Below are positions 32,727 to 57,852 of a stretch of 64,000 nucleotides of DNA, one piece after another. The translations under genes and the position numbers were made by a program. The notes beneath the pieces were generated by a model, which was not told the origin of the DNA, did not search any database, and saw nothing but the letters and a program-made list of their open reading frames with translations. The DNA lies in assembly GCA_963845755.1 (NCBI GenBank), contig CAWJTV010000036.1, positions 32,001-96,000 of the forward strand. Direction: 5' to 3'. This DNA comes from an uncultured Planctomycetota bacterium (GTDB lineage: Bacteria > Planctomycetota > Planctomycetia > Isosphaerales > Isosphaeraceae). Position 1 is the first letter of the stretch. Every line of letters begins with the position of its first letter.

Positions 32727-33229
32727 CTATTCATGCTCCTCGCCCCTCTCGCGTCGTCCCAGGCTGTTGACCGTGCTGGTGGCGGCGTAGATGAGATCGG
32801 GGACCACCGGCCCATCGGTGCGATAAGCGCCCGTGCCGCCCTGGTACCGGCGTCCGTGCGACCAGCCCAGGATCACGCGGCGTCGGAAATGCGCGGCACC
32901 GGTTTCGTCCCAGCCCCAGGTCCCCTCGTCGCGCCGGCGGGCTTCACCCTGGCGATGGCCATGGCCGATCGGGACGCCACCGCCGACATAGTAACCGATT
33001 CCGCCGGGCGTCGCGCTCGGCTCCAGGTGACCGGCCGGCGTTCGCGGGTAGCCCCGCGGTCGTCGGTGTGCGGGATGAACCGCGGCTCGCCCGGCGGCGG
33101 CGTCCCCTCTTTCTTCTGGTGATGACGGGCGAAGAGGTGGAATCGCCGGGACGGGTCCTCGGCGTACGCCGCGACGCCGGCAGCCAGGATCTGGCCCGCC
33201 AGGATGGCTCGCAACACGGATGCTCGCAT
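32727..33229 (-). CDS. Small secreted hypothetical protein (frameshift near 33055)
   Basis: Signal-like MRASVLRAILAGQILAAGVAAYAE; corrected frame GYYVGGG...EGTWGWD...LGWSHGRRYQGGTGAYRTDGP; 16 nt downstream of the GlcG-domain gene. Confidence 0.65.
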
Positions 33230-33245
33230 CAGCTCCCTCCGAGGA

Positions 33246-35352
33246 TCACGCCTTCTTCCTCCGCGGCGCCGGCAAGGGCAAGGGCAAGGCCGACCCTTCC
33301 GCATATTTGGGACCGCCGATCGGCACGTGCGGGTTTCGGTTGAACTTGAAGAACGGCAGTCGGACGCCCCGGACCTTCACCATGTCGGCACGCTTCCGAC
33401 TGGGCGGGGCATAGGCCAGCGCCGCCTCCGCGGTCACGTCGTCGTCCTGGAACACACCGTCACCGCTGACCCCCAGGCCGCCGACGAGCGGCTTGGTCGC
33501 TCCGGTGCCGGTGAGGTCCTTGTACAACGGCGCACTGCCGGGGAAGAACACCACGCCGTTCTGGTTCGCCGGGTTGGACGGGTCGTGGAAGTTCGCGTTG
33601 GGGTTGAAGTCGGCGTAGCCCTGGAGGCTCTGATAGTCCTTGGCCGGCAGTGGAGCGCCCTGATTCGTGCCGTACGGGGTCACGCCACCGTCGGTCAAGA
33701 TCGAGCCCGGACCGGCCGGGTCGATATCGATCCCCTCGGGGAAATGCGGCAACGAGAGGTAGCGGAAGGTCCGGGCGGTGAGCGCCGTGCCGGCGGGAAT
33801 CCCCTTGATCTTGTCGGCCGGCTGGAGCTGGCTGGCGTTGTCGTAGTAGGCGACGTTGCGGGCCTTGGCGACCGCCACGCCGATCGAGAAATACGTGGCG
33901 TCCGGCATGCGGTACAGGCCCAGGATGTCGCCGTTCTCGTCGCTGACGGCGAAGACCATCCGGGTGGTACTGTTCAAGGGCAGTCGGATCTGGGCACGGA
34001 CCTGGCCGGCCTCGGCGATCCCGCGGGCCACGATCGCCTCGACGTCGGCTGCGGTCAGGTCGCCGCCGGCGTGGGGCGTCACCAGCCAGCCATAGGGCAC
34101 ACCCTGGCCGGGCAGGTAGATGTCCCCCTGCGCGTCAACCGGCTGGTCCGTGCCGTCATCGGGACTCCCCGCCCCGAATTTCGCGCCGTAGCTCAACACG
34201 TTCTTGACGCCTTCCAGCCCGCCGTGACCGAAGAGGTTGAGCGTGATGCCGACCAGGTCGATCCGGCCGAAGGGCTCGGTGAAATTGGGCAGCGCCGGCG
34301 CGCCGTTGACCGGGCCGTTGATCGGCACCCCGGCCTGCGAGCTCCCTCCGGCCGCCACGAACGCCATGTACTCGGCGACGTCCGAGTAATCCGGCTCCTT
34401 CTTGTTCCGCAGGAGCGGCGTGTTCAGAGTCGAGTTCTCTTCGGTAGCGTAGCCCGTGGTACCGGGGAAGAAGACGCCGATGCCGCCGACCTCGGCGAAG
34501 GTCCCGTCCGGCTGCTTCTTGTACAGGGGCAAGCCGCCGGGCAGGGTCGCAATCCCCCGCGACTGCGCCGTGGGCAGGATGCCCGTGACCTGCCCGTACG
34601 ACTCGGGCGCGACAAGGTTGCCGCCGGCCGGAATGTCCTGTGAGGGGACGTTGAACCGCGTCCCTGTGGCATTGCTGATGCTGTCCCGGTTCGTGCCCTC
34701 GATGTCGAAGAGATCGACCTGCGGCGTGAACTGGATGCCCGGGGGGAAGTGTCCCTTGATCGCCACCGGCGCGACGTAGCCCGGGCCGTAGATCGTCGAG
34801 TTGCCGCCCGGATCGGGGACGTCGGGGTTGGAGTTCGACCTCGCGCTGGGAGACCGTGGTCTGGCTGATGTCCTGGACGGTTCGGGAGGTCAAGGGCGCC
34901 GTGTCGTTGGCGAAATAGGCGCCCGTGCGAGCCAGCGAGACGGCGCCATCGATGGCGAAGACCTTGTTCGTCACATCGTCCGTGATCTGCGTCGAGACCC
35001 CGCTCTCGATCCGGACGCCCAGGATCGTCCCGTTGCGGTTGACCACGGCGATGATGGCATCATTCAGGTCGGTGGCCGCCGCCGCGCGCTCCAGGAGCGT
35101 CTTCACGTCGCCGGGCGTGAGCACCTGGTCGGGCAAGGGCGGCGCGGAGGGATCGTCGGGATTGGTCGGGTCGTAGCCATGCACGCCAGGAGCGATGTCG
35201 GTGCCGCTGGTGACGGCCGAGGAGACATGCGCGGCGGAGTGCCGGGCCGACGCGCTGAGCAGCATACGCGGCTCGAGCCGGTCACACGACAGGCCGACAA
35301 CTCCGTCCCACCTGCGGCGCGGACGGGAATCGCGCAAGCTCCACCATCGCAT
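33246..35352 (-). CDS. Secreted heme-binding-type protein with two GlcG/HbpS-like domains (frameshift near 34835)
   Basis: CDRLEPRMLLS export motif; domain 1 AIIAVVNRNG...LARTGAYF...LPGGLPLYK...GGIGV; domain 2 VFAVSDENG...AKARNVAYY...FPGSAPLYK...GGLGVSGDG. Confidence 0.78.
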
Positions 35353-35789
35353 GGCGTTCCGTCGCCTCTCGCCTCGGGTTCCCCGGGCCGACGGGCCATG
35401 AGCCGCCGGACGCGCCGTACTCCGAGAAATGGGCCCTTGACCGCCGTCCCTATTGCCGACGGTCGATCGCGTTCCACGCTCCATCACTCAGGAGGATCGG
35501 CGGTCCTGCCGTCACAGATCACTTTTTCCGTGCGATCGTGGCCATGCATGTGATCGCGACAATCGAAAGATTCGTCAAAATCCTCAACTTTTCCTGTCGT
35601 GTGAACCGATCTTGAAGCGACAGACCATACCTTGTCTTCGTGGTATCGGTCCGGGCCGAATACGTCACGTCGTGAGTCACCGATCGACTCTTCATTTCCG
35701 GCAGGCGTCACCAGCCGTGTTCTCGCATGCCGTCGGGACACGTATCGTTCCTGCGCCCCAGCGCCAACGAAGATCTCCGGGGGAAATCG

Positions 35790-37786
35790 ATGGGGCTGAG
35801 CCGCCGAGCCTGGGTCCTGGCTACGACACTCGCGCGATCGGCGCGTGGTGCGGGCCGGTCGGCGCCCAGGAGCGAACGACGCCTTCGGTCCCGCCGCCGG
35901 CGGCGTCCGGCTCGCCCTCGGATCCGAGTCCGACGAACCTGCCTCCGGTCTTCCCCACTCCGGACTCGCCGAGCGAACGAATGACGCGGGACTCGGGGGC
36001 TACGAATCGCCCGCTCACCGGCCCTTGGCCCGGCGTGCTAAGGCGGCCGATCGACGTCCCGTCCTCGCCGGCCCTGGTCGGGCCGCTCTTCGACACCGGC
36101 CCGTTCCTCCAGGTACCGATGGATCCCCCGACCGGCTATACCGGACCGTCCGGAGTGCTCCCCACCGAGCCGCAGCAGTCGAGCCATTTCGTCCCGGTCG
36201 AGGATCGCTGGCGGATCGGATCTCCCACCTGGGACCGCTACGACAAAGGCCATCCGATCACCGACGAGTACCCCTACATGCCCGGCCGATTGCTCGACCC
36301 GTACAACCTCAACGTCTTCAAGGGGGATTACCCGATCCTCGGCCAGCATACGTTCCTCGACATCAGCGCGACGGCCAACCTCGACTTCGAAGGCCGTGAG
36401 ATCCCGACCCAGACCTCGGGGTTCGAGAGCACGGAGCGCCCGTTCTCCGGAAACTCGTTCGGCCGGCCCAACAGCTTCTTCACGCTCAACTTCTTCTCGT
36501 TCTCGTTCGACCTGTTCCACGGCGATGGGGCGTTCAAGCCGGTCGATTGGCGCATCAAGCTGGTCCCGACCCTGGGCGTCAGCAACTTCTCGTTCAGCGA
36601 GCAGGCGCAGACCAGCCCCAACGTGGCCCAGGGGACCATTCGCACCCGAGAAGTCTGGGCGCTCCAGGAGGCGTTCGCGGAGTACAAGCTGGCCGACCTC
36701 GGCCCCGATTACGATTTCGTCTCGGTCCGCGCCGGCAACCAGCCGTTCAACGCCGATTTCCGCGGATTCCTCTTCTCCGACATCAACCGGGGAGTCCGGC
36801 TCTTCGGCACCCAGCACTCGAATCGCGACCAGTTCAACCTGGTGTACTTCCGCCAGTGGGAAAAGGACACCAACACCGGCCTGAACACGTTCAACGACCG
36901 CGGACAGAACCTGATCTTCGCCAATTACTACCGCCAGGACTTCATCTTCCCCGGCTACACGGCGCAGGTGAGCCTGAACTACGACAACGACCCGGCGTCG
37001 ATCAAGTTCGACAAGAACCGGTTCCTGGTGCGCCCGGACCCCGTGGGCAACTTCCAGCCGCACGAGGTGGACGTGGCCTATCTGGGCATCGCGGGCGACG
37101 GACACTGGGGCCGGTTCAACCTGACGAACCAGTTCTACTGGGCGTTCGGCCGCGACAGCATGAACCCGCTGGCCAACCGCCCGCAGACGATCAATGCGCA
37201 GATGGCGGCGATCGAAGGCTCGTACGACCGCGACTGGGTGCGGTACCGGCTGTCATTCTTCTTCGCATCGGGGGACGGCAACGTCAACGACACGCACGCC
37301 ACCGGGTTCGACACGATCCTCGACGCGCCCAATTTCGCCGGCGGCCAGTTCAGCTTCTGGAACCGGCAGCAGATCGGCCTGCAAGGAGTGAACCTGGTAC
37401 AGCGGCTCAGCCTGGTGCCCGACCTGCGCTCGAGCAAGATCCAGGGCCAGGCGAACTTCGTCAACCCCGGGCTGATCCTGCCCACCTTCGGCATGGACTT
37501 CGAGCTGACGCCCACGCTCAAGCTGATCACCAACTACAACCTGGTCTGGTTCGACAAGACGGCCCCGTTACAGCAGTTCTTGTACCAGGGGAACATCGAC
37601 CGTTTCGTCGGGTTCGACATCGGCTATGGCTTCGAGTATCGACCGCTGTTGAGCGAGAACGTCGCGATCATCGGCGGCGTGCAGATGTTGATCCCCGGTC
37701 AGGGTTTCCGTGACATCTACAACAATTTCGACAATCGGGTCGGCGGCCTGGTCGCGGGGTTCCTCAATTCGGTGTTCACGTTCTAG
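35790..37786 (+). CDS. Predicted outer-membrane beta-barrel protein (frameshift near 35835)
   Basis: Signal peptide MGLSRRAWVLATTL..AIGAWCGPVGAQE, Pro-rich linker, many amphipathic aromatic strands, C-terminal FLNSVFTF ending in Phe. Confidence 0.7.
37712..37786 (+). repeat. att-like direct repeat, left copy (3' end of barrel gene)
   Basis: 75 bp with about 6 mismatches to 46729-46803. Confidence 0.9.
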
Positions 37787-37828
37787 AGCGCATGGCGTTC
37801 GAATTGCGACACGGTGCGAGGCCGCCCG

Positions 37829-38158
37829 AGTTAACTTGGTCCTTGATCTGTTGAGGCCCATGGGCCCATGATCTCATTTCTTTCCGAACATTCTTTGCCC
37901 ATCTTCCGTGCTCGCTCCCCTATATGTTGCTATTTATTACCTCTGATCTGCTTTGTTCTCGGAATAATTTCCGCCTTCCATAGCTGGCGATTCCCTAACT
38001 AAGTAAGGCATGTTAATTTTTATCAACAGTCTGTTGACCGCGCATTGGATCATTGTTATCAGAAGAGAATCCATGCGGATGGTCGTCGTTAACTTGCGGT
38101 CGCGGCTCGGGTCGGGCTGTGGGTGAGGAAGGCGAAGAAAGGGATCGAAGAGAGTTAA
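37829..38158. repeat. 330-bp AT-rich non-coding direct repeat, copy 1
   Basis: Near-identical to 44865-45195. Confidence 0.95.
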
Positions 38159-38357
38159 ATCACCTTTCGTGATTCTGGGAGACTTTCATCCAGCGCTGGC
38201 TCGCGGGTAGCAATGGTGCCCGCGCTTGTTCCAAGCCTCAAGGTAGATCTTCTTGTTCCATAAGTTTCTCCATGGTCGGGCACCGATGGTTCCATGGGAC
38301 GGTGGCGTGTAAGTCCTCCCAGACCCGTTCGATGCGATTGTGATCGGGGCAGTCAGC
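38159..38357 (-). pseudogene. IS630-family transposase C-terminal remnant with IS end
   Basis: DCPDHNRIERVWEDLHATVPWNHRCPTMEKLM on the minus strand. Confidence 0.7.
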
Positions 38358-38359
38358 CC

Positions 38360-38760
38360 GGGCGTACCTGAAACAGACCGGCTATCGCCATGGGCTCCTG
38401 TTCTGGGCCGAGAAGAACGGCCAGGGTGGTCCGTTGCGATATCAATGAGACTCCTCGCCGATCTCCATCGGGTTTTTATGATAACATGAAGGTAGAAAAG
38501 GACTTAAACTCATTCCCACGCTCCGCGTGAGAACGAGAGGGGGAGCGTCGGGCGGTGGCGATCAGCGAGGAGTCTCATATCAATCGGTGCAAGAACGCTG
38601 GGCGGGCTACTGTGCCCGGGCCGGGGTCTGCTGCACGCTCCACCGGTTGCGTCACACGCACGCGACCGAGCTGGTTAAGGGAGGCGTGAGCCTAGCGACG
38701 ATCCGCAAGCGTCTGGGGCACAAGACTCTCCAGACCACATTGCGATATGCCAAGCAGTTC
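38360..38760 (+). pseudogene. Tyrosine recombinase C-terminal fragment interrupted by a MITE
   Basis: RAYLKQTGYRHGLLFWAEKNGQGGPLRYQ | SVQERW...HRLRHTHATEL...RLGHKTLQTTLRYA (HxLRH, LGH, catalytic Y). Confidence 0.85.
38447..38576. mobile_element. 130-bp MITE
   Basis: TIR GAGACTCCTCGC(C/T)GATC at both ends; 8-bp TSD ATATCAAT (38439-38446, 38577-38584); removal restores RYQSVQ. Confidence 0.88.
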
Positions 38761-38938
38761 GGATGCGACGGCCGATGGGAAGTGCGCAGCGGAAGCAATT
38801 GCGATCCCGATGATAATCCTAGACGACGTTTGCGGATGAGCCAGGCCCACTCACCGGGGCTCAGAGCATGTTTTCGCAGCAATCTGGGCGGCACCATGAG
38901 TCCGAAACTGGATTGCTCGAGCAAATTGGGACACCTAG

Positions 38939-40587
38939 GAGCCTGTCCGAGAATTCGCCCGTGTCTCGCCTTGGCCCCTGGGTTCCCACCGGGCCTTGGC
39001 CATTTCGGCCTCGGCCGCGCCCTCGGCGCGCACTATCCCACTCAACTCTCGGCGGCGGCGCAGGTGTGGCGCCAAATCTTCAGTAGATTGTGGGTCAGGC
39101 AGATCAGTTGCCACTCGGCGGAGACTTTCTCCAAGCCACGGAGCAGAAACTGGCGAATCCCCCGCGCGAATTTGATCTGGCCGAAGACCGGTTCGACGAT
39201 CTGCTTCCGCGCCGCGTACAGGGCTTTGCCGGCCGCCGTACGCAGTTTGTGCTGCATCTTCTCGTTCACACTCGCTTCCGGTGCGGGAGCCGTCGTCGCC
39301 GACGTCACCGCAGCCACGTGGTGCTTCTGACGCTCAACAGCCACATACGGGTCCATGCCGAGCTGCTCCAGTCCCGCCACCGCTTTCGCGCTGAAATAGC
39401 CCGTGTCCGCCGTGTTCGGAATCGGCGTCGGGGTCCCGTCGCTGGCCATCGGCCGCGGGATCCCAGCCGCCTCCAGATTGTTTAAGGCTGCTTGCGCCAT
39501 CGGCACCGCCTGTTCCTTGTCGTTGGGCGCTCGAGGTCACGTCCGGGGCGACGATGATCTGGTGCGCGCCATCCACCACCGCCTGGGCGTTGTACGAATA
39601 ATCGAACCCCTTGTTGCTCTGCTTCATGATCTTCGCTTCGGGGTCGGTGAAGTTCATTTGCGCCTTCTCCTCGGGACTCGGATCGATCGGAGCCGGTGGC
39701 TTGCCCCGGCGTTTGCGGCCGTCCGCTTCCCGCTGGGCTTGGGCCTGATCCCGGCGGCGTTGTTCTTCGTCCGCCCGGGCAGCCGCCTCGGCTTCCAGCC
39801 GCGCTTTCGCCTCGCGAATCTTGGCCAACCGATCGTCACGCCGCTTCAATTCCGCCGGCAGTTCGTCGCCGCGACGGCTCCCCAACGCCGCATCTTGCTC
39901 GGCGTCGAGCTGCTCAGCTTCCTGGAGCATTTGCTCGATCTCGGCCTTCAGCCGTTCGATTTCCTTCCCCATGTAGCCGTAGCTCATCGCCTTGTGCCGC
40001 GAGGCGTTGGCCCCCATCTTGGTCCCGTCGGTGGACAGGTTCCCCAACTTGACCATCCCCAACTCGCCCGCGATGCGCAGCACCTCAAGGAACAGGGGCC
40101 GCAGTGCCGCCAGGTGGATCTTGCGAAAATCGCTGATAGTGCGGAAGTCGGGCCGATCGATACCGACAATGGCTCGGAACGCCAGATTGCGCTCACAGGC
40201 GGCGGCGATCTTCCGGCTGGAGCGGACACCGATGCAGTAGGCATAGACCAGCAGCGTCACCATCATGGTCACGTCGAAGGGGGGTTGGCCGCGCAGTTCC
40301 TGGGCATAATGCTTGTGGAACGGAGTGAGGTCAAGCTGCGGGATGAGATCGATGAGGAAGAACACCAGATCGTCTTCGGGGAGCGCCTCCCGCGGCGAGA
40401 TGGCGTCGTGACCATTCTGTCGAGGGTCCCAGGCTCGGTAGGTCTTGCGTCGGCCCTCCATGATTCGGCTCCCCGATCAGGCACCAAGGTAGAGGAAAGG
40501 TCGGAAACCCGCATTGTGCCCGAACCGACTCCGTCCGTACACCTGGCTCATCCGCGACAATGCGGGTCAGAGTTCTCAGACAGGCTC
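38939..40587 (-). mobile_element. IS1182-family insertion sequence
   Basis: IRs GAGCCTGTC(C/T)GAGAA(T/C)TC, CTAG duplicated on both sides, transposase inside. Confidence 0.9.
39042..40461 (-). CDS. IS1182 transposase (frameshift near 39530)
   Basis: SSRKIAAACE, PDFRTISDFRK, DGTK, TDPEA, ADTGY, RKQIVEPVFGQIK. Confidence 0.9.
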
Positions 40588-40760
40588 CTAGCCTGCGATT
40601 GGCGTGACCGAGAGGCCGAAGGTGCAGTACTGGAAATGCCGTCTGCCGTTTACCCCATACCGAGGGTTTCGAAATCCTCTCTCGGCAAGGTGCATGATGC
40701 CCAACGAATGTGGTGGTCCCCCCTGTTTCGAGATCGCTCGCATAGACGTGGAATTCGGCA

Positions 40761-41918
40761 ATGATCGGCCCTCTATTGAGCCCGGCTTTCGAGAGCGGCG
40801 GGCCAATGCGTGGGAGCTTCCTATTGCCTACCATCTGCCGGATCGTTGATCGCAACGGCGAGCTGGTCGCCACGGTCGCCAACCTCGATGAGATTCACGC
40901 GCTTCTCAGCGACAATACCCCTCGGAAGCCGTTGCGAGGGAAGCCGCCTTTGCTGAGCGTGGTCATCCCGCTGTTCAACGAAGAGCTGAACGTGGAGCAG
41001 CTCCATCGTCGGCTGGTGGATTCGCTCGACACGCTAGGTGAACCCTACGAGATCCTCTTCGTCAACGACGGCAGCCGCGATGATACGCCGGGGCGGCTGG
41101 AGCGAATTCAGGACGAGAGTCCCCAGGTCACCGTGATCCACTTGAGCCGGAATTTCGGCCACCAGGCGGCCGTATCGGCAGGGTTGGAATATGCCAGGGG
41201 CCGGGCCGTCGTCGTGATGGACGGCGACCTCCAGGATCCGCCCGAAGTCCTCCCGCAGTTCGTGGATCGCTGGAGGAAGGGCTACGACGTGGTCTACGCG
41301 GTTCGTCTGCAGCGGAAGGAGGGGCCGATCAAGCGACTCTGCTACTTCCTCTTCTACCGGATCATGAACGCGATCAGCGACATCGACATCCCGCTCGATA
41401 GCGGCGATTTCTGCTTGATGGACCGCAAGGTGATCGAGGTCCTGGTCGGCCTGCCCGAACGGATGCGTTTCGTCCGCGGGCTGCGTACGTTCGTCGGGTT
41501 CAAGCAAACGGGCCTCGAGTACAAACGTGCGGCACGTGCGGCCGGCAAGCCGAAATATACCTTGCGTTCGCTGATCTCGTTGGCCATCGACGGGCTGGTC
41601 AGCTTCAGCGGCTATCCGTTGCGGCTCTTAGCCTACGTGGGAGTCGCGACCGCGTTCGCCTCAGGCCTGGTGACGGTCTGGGTGCTGATCGACGCCCTGG
41701 CCAACCATACGGCCCCCCGCGGCTGGGCCAGCGTCATGGCCGCGATCCTGTTCGTGGGCTCGATCCAGCTCATCGGGCTGGGGGTGGTCGGTGAATACAT
41801 CCGCCTGATCTTCCTCGAGTCGAAGCGACGGCCCATGTACATCATCGGCGAATATCGCCCCATGGGGTTCACCGCGGCGGAGGGCTATCGCGTGGCCCCG
41901 CCGATCGAGATCTGCTAG
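40761..41918 (+). CDS. GT2 polyprenol-phosphate glycosyltransferase (GtrB/ArnC-like); start uncertain
   Basis: SVVIPLFNEE, VNDGSRD, SRNFGHQAA, MDGDLQDPP, two C-terminal TM helices, GEYI. Confidence 0.92.
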   Translation: MIGPLLSPAFESGGPMRGSFLLPTICRIVDRNGELVATVANLDEIHALLSDNTPRKPLRGKPPLLSVVIPLFNEELNVEQLHRRLVDSLDTLGEPYEILFVNDGSRDDTPGRLERIQDESPQVTVIHLSRNFGHQAAVSAGLEYARGRAVVVMDGDLQDPPEVLPQFVDRWRKGYDVVYAVRLQRKEGPIKRLCYFLFYRIMNAISDIDIPLDSGDFCLMDRKVIEVLVGLPERMRFVRGLRTFVGFKQTGLEYKRAARAAGKPKYTLRSLISLAIDGLVSFSGYPLRLLAYVGVATAFASGLVTVWVLIDALANHTAPRGWASVMAAILFVGSIQLIGLGVVGEYIRLIFLESKRRPMYIIGEYRPMGFTAAEGYRVAPPIEIC

Positions 41919-41929
41919 GAAGTCAAGAC

Positions 41930-42760
41930 ATGATCCACCGCTGGTCCGAGGGCGTGGCCGCCGACAACATGGCGGAGGACATCCTCGTCGAGTTGGGCTC
42001 GCTCATCAACCGCCACCCGTGGTGGCGGGCGCGGTCGCGGCTGACGCAGGAGCTCCTCGGTCGCCTGGGCGTGGCGCCGCCGGCGCGGGTGTTCGATGCG
42101 GGCTGCGGCTGGGGCACCACGTTGGAGGCCCTGGAGCGGGCGGGATACCGCGCCACCGGCGCCGACATCTCGCGGAGGGCCCTCGAGCGACTGGATCGAC
42201 CGGGCCGGGAGCTGGTGGAGGTGGACCTCACCAAGCCCTTGCCTCCGGAGGAGGTCCGGGGCTACGACGCCGTGCTGGCCCTCGACGTGATCGAGCATCT
42301 CGACGATGACCGGGCCGCGGTCGGCCGGCTGGGCGAACTGGCACGCCCGGGCGGATACGTGGTCGTGAGCGTCCCGTCCCGGCCCGACCTGTTCTCGGAG
42401 TTCGATCGCATCCAAGGGCATCGCCGCCGCTACCTGCCGGAGACCCTGGAGCGGGCCTTCCAGGTCGCCGACCTGGAACTCGAGCAGACCTTCTGGTGGG
42501 GCGCCTGGATGGTGCCCCTGATCCGCTGGTCGCGCGGCCGCTCCAAGGCGGCGGCCGGCAAGTTGACCGCCGCGGCCTACTGCCATTATCTCGCTCCCCC
42601 CTTGGCCGGTGCCGCTCGCCATGAAGGCCGCCTACGCGATCGAGCAGCCCCCGCGCTGGCCGGCAAGCTCCGCGACGGGACGTCGCTCTTCGCCGTCGCT
42701 CGCCGGGTCGCGCGAACCGAGGCCATGCCGTCGGCGATCCTCGAACCGGAGCGAACATGA
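41930..42760 (+). CDS. Class I SAM-dependent methyltransferase
   Basis: VFDAGCGWG, ALDVIEH, GHRRRY motifs. Confidence 0.88.
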   Translation: MIHRWSEGVAADNMAEDILVELGSLINRHPWWRARSRLTQELLGRLGVAPPARVFDAGCGWGTTLEALERAGYRATGADISRRALERLDRPGRELVEVDLTKPLPPEEVRGYDAVLALDVIEHLDDDRAAVGRLGELARPGGYVVVSVPSRPDLFSEFDRIQGHRRRYLPETLERAFQVADLELEQTFWWGAWMVPLIRWSRGRSKAAAGKLTAAAYCHYLAPPLAGAARHEGRLRDRAAPALAGKLRDGTSLFAVARRVARTEAMPSAILEPERT

Positions 42761-44485
42761 GCCCCACACCCGACCCGGCCAAGACTGGCGCCACCCCGTC
42801 GTCTTCTCCATCGGGCGAGCTGGGCTCCATCCTGCTGCTGACGGCAGCCTGGGTGGGCATGGCGACCCTCGTCGATCCGCGGGGCGAGTTCTCGCTGAAT
42901 GATGACTGGGCCTATGCGCTTCCGGTCAAGACCCTCGTCGAGCGGGGCTCGATCCGCTTCACGTTCTGGCAGTCGATGACCCTGATCGCCCAGGTGCTCT
43001 GGGGCGCCCTGTTCTGCCTGCCCCGAGGGTTCTCGTTCCTGTGCTGCGGGTGTCGATGCTGACGGCCGGTCTAGCGGGCGTCTTGGGACTCTACCGCCTG
43101 TGCCGGCATATCGGTGCGGGCACCGCGCTGGCGACCTTGGCCACTCTGACGCTCGCCCTCAACCCCATCTACTTCGGACTGTCTTGCACGTTCATGACCG
43201 ATGTCTCTTTCACGGCAATCATGATCCTCAGCATTCTGGGGCTCTTCATGGGGCTCGATACGAGGAGGGATCGGCTCCTTCTGGTCGGGTTGGCAGCGGC
43301 TTTCGCAGCCCTGTTCGTCCGCCAGCTTGCCCTGGCGGTGTTCCTGGCCTTCCTCGTCGCCTCTCCGCTCAAGCTCGGCCTCGGTCGCCGATGGCTGCTC
43401 TACGCGGTGTCTCCCACGCTGCTCGCGGGCGTCTCCCTGGCAGCCTATTCTCGCGTACTTACCTACTTCGGCCGGCTTCCGGGGATGTACTACGCGAAAG
43501 CCAATACCCTCAACGCGATGATCCGGGATCTGCTCTATTTCCGGCCCGGCGCGGTCAAACCGGCCTTGGCGCGGCGATCATGATGTTCATGCTCGCGGGG
43601 CTCTTCGCCCTACCCGTGCTTTCGGCACTCTGGCCCGCGCTGGTCTCAGGATTCGAGAGGGGCCGGCGGAATCGCCGCTACGGCTGGATCGCCGGCTTCA
43701 CCTGTGCCGTGACCGCGGGCCTCGCCGCGATGGGCAACTTGCTGCCCATGTCGGGGAACATCATGCAAGATCTGCGGATGGGGATCGTCTCGCTTCCGGG
43801 CTCGGGTTTGGCGGCGGCCCCGAAGACTTACTGGATCGTCCTCACGGCGGCCGCGGCACTCGGGCTGTCGCTTCTGCTCCTCGTCCTCCTCGACCTTTCG
43901 ACGGCCGCGTTCCACGCGCGGGACGAGAATGGGACGACATTGCGGTTCCGCATCGTTTTCCTGGTGCTGACGGGCGTGCTTTATTTCGGCCCGCTGGGCT
44001 TGCCCTATCAGGCCATGCTGGACCGCTATGTGCTGCTGATCCTCGCCCTGTTCATCGCCCTCTCGGTACTCGTGCTCCAAGTTGATAGCGGACAAGTCAC
44101 CCGCCGCTCGCTGGCGACCGGCCTGATCCTCGCGGCCATGTTCGGCGCGTACACGGTGGCGACAGTGCACGACCTCTTCGCATGGCAGAGGGTGCGCTGG
44201 GAAGCCTGCAACGACCTGATGGCCGGAAGGGTAAACGGCGTCGAGGTGTCCTCCGACCAGATCGACGGCGGATTCGAGTTCAACAACCAGATCCCCAACG
44301 AGCGGACCATTTACACGACCAGCGTCAACGGAGACCTGGTCACCGATGCCCAAGCCCGACCCTACGCAGTCGCGTTCAGCGAGCTGCCGGGTTTCGAGAC
44401 GCTGGAACGCCGGAGGACTCCGGTCTGGCTCCCGTATCCGCCGCAAGAGATCCTAGTTCTCCGCCGGATCCAGTCGCATCCTTGA
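42757..44485 (+). CDS. Multi-pass GT-C (ArnT/PMT-like) glycosyltransferase (frameshifts near 43040 and 43570)
   Basis: LNDDWAY luminal DD motif, FMTDV, many TM segments, DRY; three overlapping ORFs. Confidence 0.75.
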
Positions 44486-44769: not shown

Positions 44770-44864
44770 TGGCCGCCTTGGAGTGGACCATCGCGTGGCT
44801 GCATTCCTTCGGCCGGCTGCGCCGCCGTTGGGATCAGCTCGCGGAGATTCAAGCGCCTTCCTCA
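44770..44864 (+). pseudogene. IS5-like transposase C-terminal remnant
   Basis: LEWTIAWLHSFGRLRRRWDQLAEIQ. Confidence 0.55.
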
Positions 44865-45195
44865 AGTTAGTTTGGTCCTTGATCTGTTGAGGCCCATGGG
44901 CCCATGATCTCATTTCTTTCCGAACATTCTTTGCCCATCTTCCGTGCTCGCTCCCCTACATGTCGCTATTTATTACCTCTGATTTGCTTTGTTCTCGGAA
45001 TAACTTTCGCTTTCCATAACTGGCGATTCCCTAACTAAGTAAGGCATGTTAATTTTTATCAACAGTCTGTTGACCGCGCCATTGGATCATTGTTATCAGA
45101 AGAGAATCCATGCGGATGGTCGTCGTTAACTTGCGGTCGCGGCTCGGGTCGGGCTGTGCGCGAGGAAGGCGGGGAAAGGGGTCGAAGAGAGTTAA
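44865..45195. repeat. 330-bp AT-rich non-coding direct repeat, copy 2
   Basis: Near-identical to 37829-38158. Confidence 0.95.
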
Positions 45196-46591: not shown

Positions 46592-46728
46592 TGCCGTGTC
46601 AAGCGATCTCCGGCGGTCGAGACATCACCAGAATGCCCCGTCGGTTCGGCTCGACGTTTGCAGGATACCGGCGAGATTCTTGGCGAGCCAGGGCCCAGTA
46701 TTCGTTCCATCCCCTTTCCGGGCCCCGG

Positions 46729-46803
46729 GACATCTACAACAATTTCGATAATCGCGTCGGCGGCCTGGTCGCGGGGTTCCTCAATTCGGTGTTCGCGTTT
46801 TGA
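46729..46803 (+). repeat. att-like direct repeat, right copy (orphan barrel 3' end)
   Basis: Encodes DIYNNFDNRVGGLVAGFLNSVFAF*. Confidence 0.9.
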
Positions 46804-46809
46804 ATGCAC

Positions 46810-47786
46810 TCACGAGCCGGCATACGCGATCCCGGGGAATTCTACGCGAGCACCCTGGTATTGCTTCTCCCACTCGGGCGGCCAGCCGAATGCCTTGCGG
46901 GCGAGCGGCCTCAGGTCCTTATTGGCGGCCCCGCTCATGAAGTGGAGGAACTCGCCCCAGTTCATTTCGCGCGTGTAGTGCAGAGTCTTCCCCTGCCCCT
47001 CCGGGCCCTTGGGGTAGTGCTGGGCGAGGAGGCGGAAGAAAGCCGGCATCAGCCGCGAGCGGCCATGATCGCGCCAGGCCGGATAGAAGAAGTCGCGGAA
47101 CCAGTGGGTGCCCGGCCTCGGGAAGTCGTCGGACTGGGCGGTGAACCGGTCGAAGGCGCGGCGGGCCTCATCCTTGAGGCGGAGGCCGACGAAGAGGTCA
47201 TACTGGTAGAGCTCGATCCATTTGCTGTCCTTCCAGAGCCCGAAGGCTGGCGACTCGTGGACGCCGTTGCTGGCACTCTCGACGATGTGGCCGATCTCGT
47301 GGGTCGGTATGCCCAGCGACGGGACGTCCCAGGGGCCGGGCCCGCAGTCGGTGACGTTCCGGTGATCGTGCGAGGCGTCGAAGTAGGTTGACGGATGCCC
47401 GCCGCTGTAGCGCCCCTGGTGGAAGATCGCGTAGAGGCGGCCATCGGGGCCGCCGAAGGGTCCATACGTCGCCTTGGTATAGCGCCAGGCCCGGCTCATG
47501 AACGGGGCAATCCAGGCGGTCGCCTTGCCGCGGGGGACGTCGTCGTCGAAGTAGATGGCCACGTCGTCGTTGGAGCTGACGAGCGTGACGACCCGATCAT
47601 GCTCGAACCAATGTTCCTTCCAGGTCCGCGGCGGCGCGGCGCGGGCACCTTCGCCTTCCGGGCCGGCTTCGCAACCTCCTTGGCGGCGGGTTGCTGGGCG
47701 ACGCCGGACTGGGCGACGGCGGCCGCCCCCGCGAGACCGGCCACTCCCAGCAGACCGATGGCAATCCTCGGGCGATTCGACACCAT
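46810..47786 (-). CDS. Secreted HExxH (zincin-like) hypothetical protein (frameshift near 47640)
   Basis: Signal-like MVSNRPRIAIGLLGVAGLAGAAAVAQ; WKEHWFEH; THEIGHIVE. Confidence 0.65.
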
Positions 47787-47899
47787 GGCCACCTCTCAAC
47801 TCGAGTTGGGCGCGGGACCACGTTACCGACTGGCGGATTCTATCGATTTCGAGGAGAAAATGGGACGGATCGGGGGAACGGGGGCGGGCCACCGTGAGG

Positions 47900-49392: not shown

Positions 49393-49430
49393 CCGGCATT
49401 CGTGACCGTCTTCTCGCTCGCTGAGCAGCT

Positions 49431-49911: not shown

Positions 49912-49939
49912 GTCGCCAGCTCCGATCCACAATCACCAT

Positions 49940-50891: not shown

Positions 50892-50903
50892 CGCAAACCT
50901 CCT

Positions 50904-51374: not shown

Positions 51375-51380
51375 GGTTAG

Positions 51381-51398
51381 TTAACCTCAATGTTAACA
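51381..51398. promoter_or_regulatory. Possible TA operator
   Basis: GTTAAC-CTCAAT-GTTAAC immediately upstream of the toxin start. Confidence 0.45.
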
Positions 51399-51752
51399 CG
51401 AAATCAAGGGTGAGCCTCGGCACCGACTCATTTTCTTGGGCCTCCTCTCAGGGCACCAGCCTCGACGCCGGATCCTGGATCTGATGAAGTTCCGGCTTCG
51501 TATTGCAGTTGACCATGGGGCCAGTCGGAGTCAGGCCAGATTTCGGGCTTTTTTCATGCCCTCGACATCTTCGAGGAATCGTAGGGTCGCTCCATAACGA
51601 CCAGGGGCGGGCTCGACACGGACAGAGGCCAGTCGACGAGGCGGGGCGTTCGACTCACCGACGCCTTCTCGAACTCCACGAGACCGGTTCGGGCATCGGC
51701 TCATGTTGGGGCCGAATCGCGGGGCCGGTCGCAGTGTCGGGCTGGTGTCACT

Positions 51753-52448
51753 TCAGTCCTCGTGGATCTGGACCTTTCGGAACTCGACCCGGCCGCTGTG
51801 GCTCTGGAGTGCCACGTATCCCCGGCGCGGCTTGTCCTTCGGCGCGGGCGCCGCGGCCGGCCGGGTGGCCACATCGGCGAGTTCGGACTGATCGGCCTCC
51901 AGGATCGTCCGGCCATTCAGCCGGATGGTGATCCGGGGGCCGGCGCACGTGACCTCGATCGTGTTCCACTCGGGGGCCGGCCGCGCGGGGTTGGCGGTCG
52001 GGCTCTTGTACCGATAGAGCGACCCGGTCCCGTGTGCCGACGGGACGCTGCCGGCGTCGTCGAGCAACTGCACCTCGAAGGCGGCGTACGACGGGCGGGT
52101 CTCACGCGACCGACTGGGGTCGAAACGGCCCGTCCGGATGCCGAGCCCGCTGTTACCTTGCGGTTTGCCCGCCGGCGCCGGGGTGAACCGGTACTCGACC
52201 CGGAAGGTGAAGTCGCCGAACTCCCGGCGGTCGTACCGGAGGAACCCGAACCCCTCCCCGAGGCAGACGATCCGCCCGTCCTCGACAGACCACATCGTCC
52301 GTCCGGCCTTGTCCCTGGCCGGTCCCTCCACGACCCAGCCGTCCAGGCTCTTGCCGTCGAACAGGTCGCGGAAGTCGTCGGCCGAGGTCGCCGGGGCGAG
52401 GATGAGCAGCAGGACGAGCGGGGCCAGGCGGAAACCCAGTCGGGACAT
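51753..52448 (-). CDS. DUF1080 (3-keto-disaccharide hydrolase family) secreted protein
   Basis: LFDGKSLDGW, GNSG, EVQLLD, EWN, ALQSH. Confidence 0.9.
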   Translation of the reverse strand: MSRLGFRLAPLVLLLILAPATSADDFRDLFDGKSLDGWVVEGPARDKAGRTMWSVEDGRIVCLGEGFGFLRYDRREFGDFTFRVEYRFTPAPAGKPQGNSGLGIRTGRFDPSRSRETRPSYAAFEVQLLDDAGSVPSAHGTGSLYRYKSPTANPARPAPEWNTIEVTCAGPRITIRLNGRTILEADQSELADVATRPAAAPAPKDKPRRGYVALQSHSGRVEFRKVQIHED

Positions 52449-52483
52449 CGTTCGTCTCCTTCGCGAGATCGGAGGTGCCCTGC

Positions 52484-52864
52484 TCAATCGAACCACTCAT
52501 CGGCCGGGTCGAACGGCGGCACCACCATGTTCAGAATCGTCATCCGGCCGATGGCCCGGTGCCGGACGCCCGGCGGGATCATCACCGCATGGCCCGTTGC
52601 CACCGGCACCCGTTCGCCGTCCAGCTCGATGGCCGCGCCGGGGGCACACTCCAGGATGTAGTAGAACTCGGTGTGCTCGCGGTGGTAGTGGGTGCGGGCG
52701 TCGACCTCGACCTCGACGCGGTGGACGCTGGCCGGCGCATTGGGTATGTCGGCGAACGCGCGACGGGCCCAGCCGCAGGGGCATCGGACCGGCTCGATCG
52801 TGGAGTAGTCGGCAACGATGGGTGCGGCGGCGTCGGCCGGGATCTCGGTCGTGGCTCGACTCAA
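52484..52864 (-). CDS. Cupin domain protein
   Basis: CPCG, HYHREHTEFYY, IPPGVRH. Confidence 0.85.
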   Translation of the reverse strand: MSRATTEIPADAAAPIVADYSTIEPVRCPCGWARRAFADIPNAPASVHRVEVEVDARTHYHREHTEFYYILECAPGAAIELDGERVPVATGHAVMIPPGVRHRAIGRMTILNMVVPPFDPADEWFD

Positions 52865-53668
52865 GGGATTGCCCTCATGCGAGGTTCGGTCGGCTCGGTC
52901 GTGACGGCTGGGATTCCAGCATACCCGCTCACGCCGCGCCCGGAGTCGGAGACCGGGACCCAGCTCGTATAGAGCCTATCATAACGACCAGGTTGGACAG
53001 ATCGTGTCCAACGTGCCCCATGTTCACCTCGAGGAAATCCCCGTCCTCTCCGCGGTCATTCGGCGGTTGGAGTGGAACGCCGTCGTCACAATCGTCCCAA
53101 CCCGACCCGACAAATCCCCGAGTCCAGATGCCGGGCCCGACAACGGAGCGTCATCGCGGACGACCAGCAGTCGCCGTGCCCGTCGCGGCGGACGCGGGGG
53201 AGCGGTCGTCGAGCGGGCCGTCAGGTCGGATCTTCCCGTCGTCCGCCGCTTGCCCTCCCCTCGGCCCGCCGACGGCGGAGCGCAATCTCCCGTCAAGAAA
53301 TTTTTGAAAAGATTTTTATCTCCCACGGCTGTTGAGAGTTCGGAAGCAAAAAACCGTGGATCCGGTACTAGGTGCATTAACGCTTTTCCAAAGTTGCGGC
53401 ATCCTGATAATAGAGGGGCCGCACGATCACTTCCCCGCCACGTCCGAGGCATCAGCAACCCATGTCAGGGGACACCGGAACTCGCCGCCGTCCGCCGGCG
53501 GCCGGTCGCAAGACCCGACCGGACCAACTCGGCAGACGCTCGTCCCGAACTCGTTTCAGGCCAACGCGATCGGGGATGGGCCGCTTCGTAATTGATGTTA
53601 GAATGTGCCCCTTTGTGCCACGACCCGCACCGCAGGCCGCCTCCCGGGGGTCGGACGCGTTCCAAAAC

Positions 53669-53704
53669 GGGGACCGGCACCTCGAAGACTCGGAGCCGGT
53701 CCCC
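53669..53704. repeat. REP-like palindrome, copy 2 (inverted relative to 24621)
   Basis: GGGGACCGGCACCTCGAAGACTCGGAGCCGGTCCCC. Confidence 0.65.
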
Positions 53705-53836
53705 ATCGTTGGAAAGAGCGTCCAGGGATCGGCGATCGCCGTTGACGGGTGTGGGCATCGATGTTATGGTCCGGCCCCCTGGTCTCATTCCGCGCCGGGG
53801 TGATGGGAGCCCGTGGACACGGAGGTTGACCGCAAT

Positions 53837-56800
53837 ATGACCCGGTCCCGCTGCGCAACCTCGCCGCGCCTGCGAGCGAGCCAGGCCCTCGCCCTGGCGG
53901 TCCTCATCATGGCAGCCGTCCTGTTCGGGACACCCGGCCGTCGCGATGGGCATGAGGCGATGGCCCAGGCACCACCAATGTCCCCACCCTCGACACGGCC
54001 CGCCACACCCAGATCGACCGTGCCTTTCCCCGTTCCGCCCGAGCTCCAGGGCATCGATCTGTCCCGGCAGACGGCCGAGGAGGCAGCCGCCAGGAGCGCC
54101 GGCTGCGTGACGTGCCATCGGGGACAACACGAGCCCCACGGCAAGCCGGAGACGGTCCGGCTCGGCTGCGTGGACTGTCATGGCGGCGACCCGCGGGCGA
54201 CCGACCTGCAACACGCCCATGTCTGGCCGCGATTCCCCGACGCCTGGGGCGGTTCCGGCAACCCGGTCCGGTCGTACACGCTCCTGAATCACGAGTCGCC
54301 CGAGTTCATCCGGTTCGTCAATCCCGGCGACTTGCGAGTCGCCCACCTGGGTTGCGGCACGACCAACTGCCACGCCGACCAGGTGCTCCAGGTGCGCAAG
54401 AGCATGATGACCCACGGCGCGATGCTCTGGGGCTCGGCCCTGTACAATAACGGCTCGGTCCCGTTCAAGCCGGCGCGATTCGGCGAAAGCTACAGCATGC
54501 ACGGGGCCCCGCAACGGCTCCAGACGGTCCCACCGCCGACCCCGTTCGAGATGGAATGGAAGGCCGTGGTGCCGTTCCTCGACCCGCTGCCGCGGTTCGA
54601 GATGTCGCAGCCGGGGAACATCCTGCGGATCTTCGAGCGTGGCCGGCGCGACCCGCAGGAGGTCGGCATTCCGAACCCGTTTGAAGACCCCGGCAAGCCC
54701 CGCGCCGGGCTGAGCGCCCGCGGACTGGGGACCCGCAACCGCACCGACCCGGTCCTCGTCAGCTTGCAGAAGACCCGCCTGTTCGACCCGACGCTCAACT
54801 TCCTCGGGACCAACGACCATCCCGGCGACTATCGATCCAGCGGCTGCACCGCCTGCCACGTGATCTACGCCAACGACCGATCGCCGGTCAACTCCGGCCC
54901 GTACGCCGCCTTCGGCCACCAGGGACTGAGCGCTCAGGCTGACCCCATGATCCCGCGCGATGAGCCGGGCCACCCGATCCGGCACCGGTTCACTGTGGGA
55001 ATCCCGACCAGTCAATGTATCGTCTGCCACGTCCACCCGGGTACCAATGTCCTCAACTCATACACCGGCTACATGTGGTGGGACGAGGAGACCGACGGCG
55101 AGCTGATGTACCCGCCGCGACAGAAAGACCCCACCGCCGAGGAATTCACCCGCTCGATGATGTCGAATCCGGACGAGACGGCGGCGCGGGGGAACTGGTC
55201 CGACCCGGCGTTTCTGGAACGGGTCGCCGAGCTGAACCCGCAGGCGCGGCACACGCAGTTCGCCGACTTCCACGGCCACGGCTGGGTCTTCCGCGCCGTG
55301 TTCAAGAAGGATCGGCACGGGCAGTTGCTCGACCACCGCGGCGAGACCGTGACCGACCAATCGACCGCGGCGCTGATGGCGGCCGTGCGGCTGCCCGCCG
55401 AGCTGAAGGAGCGCTATCGCACCCGCAATGCCGCCGCGACCCAGCAGGCCGCGTTCGATCGCGCCGAGGCGCGGCGCGATGGGGTCCCTGTCCACCAGCT
55501 CGACATCCACCTGGAGAAGGGGATGCACTGCGTCGATTGCCACTTCATCCAGGACGTGCACGGCAACACCAAGCTCTACGGCGAGGTCCGCGCGGCCATC
55601 GAGATCCAGTGCAGCGACTGCCACGGCACGCCCGCTCGACGGGCCGGCCTGATCACCTCCGGGCCGGCCTCGGACACCTCCGCGGTCGAGTCGGGCAAGG
55701 ACGGTCGCGACCTCTCGGCCTTGCGGACACCCTTCCGACAGCGACGTTTCGAACGACGTGGCGGCGCGATCATCCAGCGCTCGATGGTCGAGCGCGACCT
55801 GGAATGGGAGATCACTCAGGTCGCCGACACGATCGATCCCAAATCCAGGCACTACAACGAGCGCGCCCACCTGGCCAAGACCGTGCGGTTCCAGGGCGAT
55901 CAGATGGTCTGGGGCGACATCCCCGGCGGCAAGGAGCAGGTTTGCGCCCACGCGAGCGAGAAGATGAGCTGCATCGCCTGCCACTCGGCCTGGAACCCGA
56001 GCTGCTTCGGCTGCCACCTGCCCCAGCGCGCAACAAGAAGATGCCCCAGCTCCACAACGAGGGCGACGTCACGCGCAACTACGTCTCCTACAATTTCCAG
56101 ACGCTGCGCGATGATGTGTTCATGCTGGCCAAGGACGGCAATGCGACCGGCAACCGGATCGGCCCGGTCCGGTCGTCGTGCGCGATCCACGTCGGGTCGT
56201 ACAACGCCAACCGCGAGTCGATCTATGTCCAGCAGCAGACGATCTCGGGCGAGGGGATGTCGGGGGTCGCCTTCAGCACGAACGTGCCGCATACCGTGCG
56301 GGGCGGGCCGCCGGTCCGGCACGATCCGCGCCGTCCGGATAACGGCCGCCCGGCCAATGCGGGTGCCTATCAAGCCGGCCACTCCGACACCAAGACCTGC
56401 ACCGACTGCCACCTCGCGAAGGGCGATGACAACAATGCGATCCTGGCGCAGCTCCTGATGCAGGGGACGAATTATGTCAACTTCATCGGGCGATACTGCT
56501 GGGTCGCGGCGGGGGACCACGGCCTGGCGGCGGTGGTGGTCACCGAGCGCGACGAGCCCCAGGCCGTCATCGGCAGCTCGCTCCACCGACTCGCCTATCC
56601 CGAATACTACCGCGAGCACGTCGAGCGCGGCGGCAGACTGGTCCACTCGCACGAGCATTCCGGCAGGGACGTCGGCGAACGCCTCCGCCGGCCGGAGGTC
56701 CTCTCGATCCAGGCGCGCGGCGAGTACCTCTATGCCGCCTGCGGCGAAGCGGGGCTCCGGGTCTTCGACATCGCGTTCATCGATCACAAGGGCTTCTCGG

Positions 56801-57852
56801 AACGGATCGTCACCGCGCCGGTGTCTCCGATGGGTCAGCGCTTCTTCGTCCGGACCTCGTATTCCACGGCGGTCGCCGCGCCCACCACGACCGCGCCCGA
56901 CCCGACCCGCAGCCATCGCCCGGAAAACTCCGAAAAGCCCGTCCACGCGCTCTATGGCTACATCTACGTCACGGACCGCGACGAGGGCCTGATCCTCGTC
57001 CCCGCCGCGACCCTACTCGACGGCAACCCCCTGAACAACTTCCTCGGCCGCGAGCTGACCTTCAATCCCGACGGCGTCCTCAAGGGGGCACGTGGGATCA
57101 CGATCGTGGGGACGTATGCGTACATCTCGTGCGACGCCGGGCTCGTCGTGATCGCGCTCGACGACCCGAAGCACCCGCGCGTGACGGCCGTGGTGGGCGA
57201 GCCGTTCGTGAAGCATCCGCGGGCGGTCCAGGCCCAGTTTCGCTACGCTTATGCCTGCGACACGGAAGGCATCAAGGTCCTGGATATCACCGACCTGGCC
57301 CACCCCCGGCCGATCGCGATGCTCCCGATGCAGGATGCCCGGAGCATCTACCTGGCGCGGACCTACGCCTACGTGGCGGCCGGGAAGGAAGGGCTGGTGA
57401 TCCTCGACATCGAGCGGCCGGCGCAGCCGCGGGTCGATCAGGTGTTCAATCCCGGTGGCTGCATCAACGAGCTGAACGACGTGAAACTGGGGATCACGTA
57501 TGTCAGCGAGTTCGCCTACCTGGCCGACGGGCGCAACGGGCTGCGCGTGGTGCAGCTCACTTCGCCCGAGACGCCGGGTAACGCTGGGTTCAGTCCGCGG
57601 CCTACCCCCCAGCTCATCGCGAATTTCAAGCTACCGGTCGGCGCCCGCGCGCTGGCGATCTCGAAGGGGCTCGACCGCGACCGCGCCGTGGACGAGTCGG
57701 GCAACCAGATCGGAGTCTTCGGGCGCATCGGCGCCCGGCCCCTCAATGCCGAGGAGCAGCGCAGGCTGTACATTCACAACAATCAGATCTGGAAAGTCAG
57801 CGACGATCCGCAGGATTCAATCTACCGGCGCATTCCGGAACGCGCGCCGTAA
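53837..57852 (+). CDS. Large exported multiheme c-type cytochrome with C-terminal LVIVD-repeat propeller (frameshift near 56028)
   Basis: CVTCH, CVDCH, CGTTNCH, CTACH, CIVCH, CVDCH, CSDCH, CIACH, CFGCH, CTDCH; repeats [16 protein letters not shown] and [13 protein letters not shown]; hydrophobic N-terminus. Confidence 0.85.

Follow-up and report, generated by a model that had tools for sequence, protein, structure and literature searches.

We analyzed a stretch of 64,000 nucleotides, referred to here as the window, from contig C36 of a planctomycete genome (G000). Four genes in it had been singled out in an initial annotation made from the sequence, and all four were found at the positions given there (Table 1). 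As that annotation had it, a gene for a protein with two DUF336 (GlcG/HbpS) domains and a small gene lie on the minus strand and diverge from a gene for a β-barrel protein ending in phenylalanine, and a gene for an exported cytochrome with ten heme motifs lies downstream on the barrel strand. The closest relatives of the barrel among the matches listed carry the labels Isosphaerales or Planctomycetales. We propose below that the window genes would form the outer half of a conserved envelope redox system.

Table 1. Features of the window and of the same contig beyond it. Positions are those of the window unless preceded by a contig name.
Feature	Position	Strand	Remarks
Window	G000:C36:32001-96000	forward	soil-type planctomycete genome, 14.3 Mb, 88% complete
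Small exported Gly-rich protein gene	33229-32727	-	no known family; GYYVGGG and EGTWGxDY motifs; one-base indel at ~33055
Double DUF336 (GlcG/HbpS) gene	35352-33246	-	N-terminal LExRxLL; one-base indel at ~34835
Outer-membrane β-barrel gene (predicted)	35790-37786	+	product ends in Phe; one-base indel at ~35834; conserved N-terminal domain
Exported decaheme cytochrome gene	53837-57852	+	9 CxxCH and 1 CxxxxCH; LVIVD propeller; one-base indel at ~56032
Heme-free cytochrome loop, conserved	54629-54736	+	unconfident in monomer model; enters barrel in orthologue complex model
Cytochrome β-propeller domain	56485-57750 (end approximate)	+	fold match
Barrel-gene 3' end, first copy of att-like duplication (75 nt)	37708-37782	+	
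Barrel-gene 3' end, second copy (75 nt), then stop	46725-46799	+	95% identical; right border of ~9-kb integrated element
Direct repeat, 331 nt	37829-38158 and 44865-45195		95% identical; inside integrated element
Tyrosine-integrase fragment (PF00589)	38572-38754	+	
Insertion sequence, DUF772 transposase	38934-40591	-	elsewhere in genome 3 full and 2 partial copies, >99%
Pentaheme gene	C36:99.9-101.2k		same contig, beyond window
Membrane b-heme protein gene, frameshifted	C36:~102.0-102.9k		two WX3HX13H and SGxxG
c3-like decaheme gene	C36:103-104.5k		
NuoEF and Fe-S/cNMP genes	C36:123.5-128k		

Each of the four reading frames is broken by one single-base insertion or deletion (indel). A pseudogene reading was rejected because rpoB and rpoC of the same assembly are split as well (valS is whole), because the indels at 33054, 34834 and 35834 are absent from single low-depth contigs of an independent public metagenome, and because the changes relative to the orthologue at locus L029 concentrate at third codon positions (65/44/233, N-terminal part of the cytochrome). 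Most likely, the indels are assembly errors and the four genes are intact.

The annotation had suggested that the barrel, cytochrome and DUF336 genes occur together in other bacteria and that an ancestral cluster has been broken by insertions here, and both suggestions held. In 200 Planctomycetota genomes, each at least 85% complete and not independent where they are kin, the barrel is present in 27 and a full-length cytochrome in exactly those 27, with partial cytochrome matches in four more; the DUF336 protein was detected (E ≤ 1e-10) in 23 of the barrel genomes but in no genome that lacks the barrel (0 of 173). Among 40 closer relatives, the barrel and a full cytochrome are present in the same 10 (one further genome has a weak partial cytochrome match), nine of which contain the DUF336 protein. 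Gene order was counted in those of 80 retained loci that have enough flanking DNA (65 behind the barrel, for 2 kb, and 59 before it). The cytochrome gene starts within 1.5 kb behind the barrel gene in 50 of the 65 loci, lies about 5.5-6 kb behind it in two and is out of view in 13, and a divergent DUF336 gene precedes the barrel gene in 42 of the 59. Moreover, the pairwise identities of barrels and cytochromes correlate (Spearman 0.89 for 61 loci, kin among them not being independent). These data support the conclusion that the three genes are one conserved cluster, which insertions have split in the window.

The cluster is widespread. Among species-representative genomes, at least 589 of 597 stretches were confirmed as barrel-family loci, and 7,856 of the 7,999 cytochrome candidates scored are relatives; the family comprises more than 7,800 cytochrome clusters at 90% identity. 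Thirteen Sphingobium and Sphingopyxis replicons contain the cytochrome. In the two sphingomonad replicons examined, a pentaheme gene and the DUF336, barrel and cytochrome genes form one run, and in Sphingobium herbicidovorans the inner genes described below follow 2-7 kb further. The locus tags of the system in that species are B6S01_RS18410-18425 and RS18445-18455. The taxa of Atlas clusters indicate Pseudomonadota and, from cluster taxa alone, Acidobacteriota.

The annotation had staked its proposal on the barrel gene encoding a β-barrel, and fold comparison agreed. Neither Pfam nor NCBIfam contains a family for this protein, and PF13372 in particular gave no match. In a model made from 10 sequences, which is weak as a whole (mean predicted local distance difference test, pLDDT, of 53), the barrel part matches AlgE (Foldseek E 8e-10; Z 21.5, root-mean-square deviation (rmsd) 4.3, 310 residues aligned), Campylobacter MOMP (Z 18.6) and OccD/OccK (Z 16-17), and 18 strands were counted in it by eye. 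The product is predicted to be an 18-strand channel that has the fold of these proteins at only 9-13% identity. AlgE, MOMP and the Occ proteins are channels for solutes or polymers, and the MtrB barrel is much wider, with 26 strands. In contrast to these channels, the window barrel has a conserved N-terminal domain of about 80 residues that touches the cytochrome in the complex model described below, and we know of no member of the AlgE/MOMP/Occ group that is paired with a multiheme protein.

The best fold match being an exporter, the barrel might export a cargo, as AlgE does alginate, or display the DUF336 protein, with the cytochrome modifying the cargo. Some UniRef names of the Sphingobium barrel indeed read "Alginate export domain-containing protein", and the LExRxLL, RTX or lipobox-like N-termini of the DUF336 proteins fit such a role. 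We nevertheless consider it quite improbable: identity to AlgE is 11-12%, the alginate-export family PF13372 is not matched, a cytochrome loop fills the barrel lumen in the complex model, and neither a polysaccharide synthase nor another cargo gene recurs in the clustered neighbourhoods.

The cytochrome matches LVIVD (E 1.5e-17), and all 66 full-length members contain at least ten heme motifs, at about 84 residues per heme (82-86). The model of the orthologue at locus L020 (1200 residues, 149 sequences; pLDDT 90, predicted TM-score (pTM) 0.91) is compact, with some 730 residues forming a heme domain and residues 757-1154 a propeller of the seven-bladed type, which matches 6nau (Z 29.0, rmsd 2.6, 296 residues aligned). 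Fold searches with the whole cytochrome were dominated by propellers, so the fold of the heme domain was barely probed; phmmer found no sequence relatives in the PDB, and a profile search only matches at E ≥ 0.009. Cytochrome cd1 nitrite reductase, NosZ, selenium-binding protein and hydrazine synthase, all exported propeller redox proteins, are among the fold matches, but these matches span the propeller alone and rank with unrelated propellers, and in none of the four is the propeller combined with a decaheme domain or a partner barrel. The family cut-off of ExtM (Geobacter ExtHIJKLMNOPQS) was not reached either (62-79 bits versus 800, best E 2e-22). Outside the heme motifs nine histidines are invariant and five more are present in 61-65 of the 66 cytochromes; M196, K216 and K946 are invariant as well. 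Much longer cytochromes, with open frames of 1704-2333 amino acids and large insertions between the heme motifs, were seen in one family, represented by G090, G201 and G216 (L139).

Residues 186-221 of the L020 cytochrome are unconfident in the monomer model yet as conserved as the rest (0.73 versus 0.70), and we therefore chose the half containing them for docking. The annotation had called for a multimer prediction, and this was made for the L020 barrel (residues 40-576 of the first row of the alignment) with residues 1-460 of the L020 cytochrome, next to three control pairs. The pair scored 0.81 (runs 0.84, 0.81 and 0.60) and the best control 0.00; 116 of 157 solved complexes attained the score mark, against two of 215 mismatched pairs, counts that are only rough with the alignments used. 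The runs agree in at least 50% of the contacts, and the pLDDT of the partners is at least 71. The barrel and the cytochrome are thus predicted to bind each other. No comparable complex with a solved structure is known to us, and neither protein has a sequence relative in the PDB, which makes it less likely that the score merely reflects a complex seen in training.

In the model, the tightest contacts connect the cytochrome loop 196-201 (ExGxP) with the PFNxDFRG loop of the barrel, which is folded inward, and with the ends of strands beside short turns, while cytochrome residues 144-151 contact the N-terminal domain of the barrel. Many of the contacted barrel residues are 94-100% conserved in 105 sequences. 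Within residues 1-460, the modelled interface contains no heme motif besides residue 90 and residues 104-108 beside heme 3, and none lies inside the lumen; the nearest is heme 3, the CX4CH site beside M196. The loop apparently enters the barrel from the periplasmic face, a side assigned from the usual topology by counting strands back from the C-terminal strand.

In pairing an outer-membrane barrel with an exported decaheme cytochrome that is encoded next to it and predicted to bind it, the system resembles MtrAB, MtoAB and PioAB, and the annotation had pointed to MtrAB-type electron transfer by such pairs. The predictions do not support conduction of this type through the barrel: the barrel fold is that of an 18-strand solute channel, and the modelled insert is a heme-free loop in place of hemes. 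MtrB is absent from the best 50 fold matches of the barrel, and no MtrA/MtrB or DmsE/MtrA family match rose above its cut-off. A check for a wide MtrB/PioB-type barrel gave no Pfam or NCBIfam match and 18-strand fold matches, from a weak model and with unlisted families outside the reach of the tool. MtrA has about 33 residues per heme (PMC5566968). With 82-86 residues per heme and more than 1200 residues including a propeller, the window cytochrome differs from such a compact wire, and judging from the model it is probably not a wire of the Mtr type.

Extracellular electron transfer (EET) to or from minerals or humic quinones could still take place via the part of the cytochrome outside the complex model or via a shuttle passing the channel. 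A barrel, a multiheme protein and a b-heme membrane protein are the layout behind the PCC3/PCC4 proposal (PMC5566968). The histidines suffice for an all-bis-His wire, and cytochromes with 15-18 hemes adjoin the pair in two planctomycete loci (L122, L123). On the other side are the solute-channel fold, narrower than that of MtrB, the heme-free insert, and the compactness of the 1200-residue model; no gene for a surface cytochrome lies within the cluster, and the barrel is common in Sphingobium species, which are aerobes. Taken together, we regard EET as unlikely, though as the likeliest of the rivals.

The double DUF336 protein is matched by PF03928 in two stretches (E 2e-13), and its best sequence matches in the PDB are EfgA (6bws, E 1e-5), 2a2l and PduO-C (5cx7). 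EfgA is a formaldehyde sensor with a pocket formed by R42, K57, S114 and D121 (PMC8153426). Using an inferred 20-residue tag offset to map its numbering, we found the equivalents R497 (67/68), K512 (68/68), S640 (68/68) and D647 (65/68) in domain 2, whereas domain 1 lacks the pocket serine. Unlike EfgA, PduO-C, OrfY and HbpS, the protein is furthermore a single exported chain of about 650 residues in which both domains and long insertions are combined. The annotation had called it a heme protein. The heme ligand of PduO-C is His18 (PMC4923194), and at this position 60 of 68 DUF336 proteins have alanine, with no histidine column in that helix, so that this label is unsupported, although the protein might bind heme in another way. 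A site for a small ligand fits the data better.

Most planctomycete DUF336 proteins have an N-terminal LExRxLL, a motif associated with the export of extracellular proteins in planctomycetes; several have RTX repeats, and those of sphingomonads have a lipobox-like LxxC. On account of these N-termini, the protein is likely at the surface or extracellular. The N-terminal additions vary among planctomycetes (L085, L020, L061, L053); besides RTX repeats, an M10 peptidase domain was observed, in L085. A second DUF336 and small gene pair, 78-90% identical, is present at G000:C25:47417-50033 (L025), with a Ser/Thr kinase gene nearby and no barrel or cytochrome gene.

The DUF336 protein might alternatively capture heme, cobalamin or a metal that the barrel imports and the cytochrome frees by reduction. 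Heme and cobalamin are ligands of HbpS and PduO-C (PMC8153426, PMC4923194), the histidine of GHFPP is retained in 61 of 68 DUF336 proteins, and the partial match of the cytochrome to ExtM, from a Geobacter selenite/tellurite operon, reached 79 bits, weak against the cut-off of 800. Such scavenging seems very unlikely to us, given the alanine at the His18 position in 60 of 68 proteins, the replacement of H200 by Arg or Gln in four divergent members, and neighbourhoods in which TonB, ABC and heme-utilisation genes do not recur.

The annotation had described the small protein as a partner of the double DUF336 protein. Its gene is present in 46 of the 80 loci, all of class Planctomycetia, its profile had no match in L106, L107 or L121-L140, and Pfam and NCBIfam contain no family for it. 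Having been found in that class only, it is not a core part of the system. Directly behind the small gene, at 32305-32593, is an array of ~7-nt units (GAATCTG/GAATCTC/GAATCCG); the genome contains 111 such arrays with at least four units, and a related one lies at C36 ~101.3-101.9k between the pentaheme and membrane-protein genes.

What the annotation had overlooked, in limiting the cluster to barrel, GlcG and cytochrome genes, is a further half, of inner-membrane and cytoplasmic proteins, encoded beyond the window. In related loci the cluster extends to between one and three genes for c554-like tetra- or pentaheme proteins, a c3-like decaheme gene, a membrane protein gene, and genes for a cyclic-nucleotide-binding (cNMP)/4Fe-4S protein and its partner, which is NuoEF-like or of the FAD/NAD(P) type; counterparts follow on the contig of the window (Table 1). 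The Fe-S protein carries two cNMP-binding domains. This genome and 20 open reading frames of related loci encode a membrane protein in which SGxxG and two WX3HX13H motifs occur; these motifs are those of the PCC3/PCC4 membrane protein, where He et al. (2017, PMC5566968) took them to represent two b hemes. The family of this membrane protein is represented in every barrel genome (27 of 27), and in 23 the distance to the barrel, cytochrome or DUF336 gene is no more than 15 kb. A lone pentaheme gene of the cluster family lies at G000:C11:925.4-926.9k (L109).

PCC4 (PMC5566968) and ptdABCDEFG (Elbon et al., bioRxiv 10.1101/2023.11.21.568154) are, in these sources, predictions from genomes only. 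The inner half resembles both in its b-heme membrane protein, cNMP/4Fe-4S protein (PF13247), flavin-NAD(P) input, c3-like decaheme and c554-like tetra/pentaheme proteins, with profile matches to PtdD-type genes at E values of 1e-17 to 1e-25. The flavin input differs, being NuoEF-like here, Pyr_redox in Sphingobium and FAD/NAD/Fer2 in ptd-type loci. Of 18 membrane-protein loci examined, eight from planctomycetes (L144-L147, L151, L152, L154, L157) have the full ptdABCDEFG order, and none of these eight contains the barrel, propeller cytochrome or DUF336 gene. The PtdA, PtdB and PtdG sets were recognised by gene order and by domains fitting the text of Elbon et al., not by the tables of that paper. 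The PtdB-type porin and the window barrel align with an HHalign probability of 2%; for the propeller cytochrome, the values are 20% over 16 columns with PtdG-type and 64% over 81 columns around the heme motifs with PtdA-type proteins. The terms "LVIVD" and "GlcG" are absent from the main text of PMC5566968, and "beta-propeller" from that of Elbon et al.

Because the inner families are common to both, the PtdB-type porin is unrelated to the barrel and PtdA and PtdG match only around heme motifs, the sequence comparisons indicate that the same inner module is used with two different outer modules and that the outer module of the window is neither PCC4 nor ptdAB. The proposed distinctness from Mtr and Pcc systems stands for Mtr and for the outer half, but not for the inner half, which is common with PCC4/ptd. 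Further chain variants, with the b-heme membrane protein or the barrel-cytochrome pair beside cytochromes of 12 to 26 hemes, are present in L122, L123, L149 and L156.

The cNMP-binding domains also bring in redox or ligand sensing, in which the DUF336 protein would sense a small molecule outside and the chain would report it to these cytoplasmic domains. Sensor functions are known for EfgA and HbpS (PMC8153426), a pair of such domains is present in the Fe-S protein, and genes for Ser/Thr kinases and adenylate-cyclase-like proteins lie near the cluster here and in some planctomycete loci. This is the least probable of the explanations we weighed: some 25-30 c-type hemes and an NADH-oxidising module exceed what a sensor needs, and kinases are abundant in planctomycetes and absent from the Sphingobium cluster.

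The explanation we favour, at slightly less than an even chance, is a periplasmic reductase that would draw its electrons from NAD(P)H and stand behind a gated 18-strand channel, with the DUF336 protein handling a small ligand outside. Electrons would pass from NAD(P)H via flavin and Fe-S centres to the two b hemes, the c3-like decaheme, the pentahemes and finally the decaheme-propeller cytochrome; by analogy with membrane domains of the ferric-reductase type, this outward direction seems about twice as likely as the reverse. The cytochrome would dock at the periplasmic mouth of the channel, which its heme-free loop would plug and may gate, and would reduce a small substrate there, the channel letting substrate in or product out. 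The exported DUF336 protein may bind or pre-process a small ligand at the cell surface.

Several observations weigh against this explanation. Four of the 27 barrel genomes gave no DUF336 match at E ≤ 1e-10, the membrane b-heme family is also present in 40 of the 173 genomes without the barrel, and the inner genes of the source genome are situated among kinase genes, 10-38 kb downstream of the cytochrome gene. By sequence, the conserved histidines would allow each of the ten hemes to be a bis-His carrier instead of a catalytic site, and would leave ligands over for one more site. The periplasmic side was read from the weak monomer model of the barrel (pLDDT 53), and residues 461-1200 of the cytochrome, outside the docked part, could touch the barrel as well. 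Finally, the EfgA pocket is mostly kept across DUF336 proteins in general (PMC8153426, S14 legend), and being family-wide it does not name the ligand.

Between the barrel and cytochrome genes, the 75-nt copy of the barrel end followed by a stop is the pattern expected for integration into a gene end. The integrated element contains, at 40761-44485, a cassette of family 2 glycosyltransferase (GT2), methyltransferase and membrane-protein genes with 67-70% DNA relatives on C28 and C11. Just outside it, at 46813-47892 (-), is a gene for an exported protein of 360 residues that has an HE motif and matches no Pfam or NCBIfam family; further right are nucleotidyltransferase and helix-turn-helix genes, a hydrolase, a cupin and dispersed repeats. 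Two dispersed repeat families are represented, at 44781-44931 (~20 genome matches) and 53146-53639 (35-40 genome matches). Compared with related loci, the spacer DNA gave no match except the barrel-end copy, about 160 nt before the cytochrome gene and one 80-nt stretch. A search with an exact 18-mer in 107 barrel loci gave one hit (L107) and found no recurrent integration hotspot at the barrel 3' end. The annotation had called most of the spacer demonstrably accessory. That applies to the duplication, direct repeat, integrase fragment, insertion sequence and dispersed repeats; for the gene at 46813-47892, the cassette with the glycosyltransferase, and the hydrolase and cupin genes, the sole basis is the lack of a DNA match in related loci.

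The inner half of the system is already in print as a prediction, and the outer trio is without a description that we could find: a literature search covering few subscription papers returned none of the barrel, the cytochrome or the double DUF336 protein. A Verrucomicrobia paper (PMC5615132) and a peat preprint (bioRxiv 10.64898/2026.05.27.727921) describe other porin-cytochrome clusters; EET1-EET4 of the latter are compact heme-dense proteins, and its main text does not contain "propeller", "LVIVD" or "decaheme". The LVIVD protein named in a Tenderiales preprint is, from what is given there, unrelated.

Somewhat more doubtful than the reductase explanation itself, we think it possible that the cluster represents a new class of trans-envelope redox machine, in at least hundreds of species including common aerobes, in which a decaheme-propeller enzyme, with a multiheme fold that has no solved relative, uses a peptide plug to gate its own 18-strand channel and is combined with ligand capture by DUF336 at the surface and with an NADH-fed inner module that is swapped with PtdAB. 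Barrel and multiheme gene pairs are routinely taken as markers of EET, and this family is large (at least 589 loci) and resembles such a pair. If the plugged-barrel reading is true, it would be a different type of machine, and such counts would overstate mineral respiration. The inner module beside two unrelated outer units suggests that the PCC4/ptd chain is a modular electron supply. The intact, compact copy in cultured Sphingobium makes the system accessible to ordinary genetics and to one structure.

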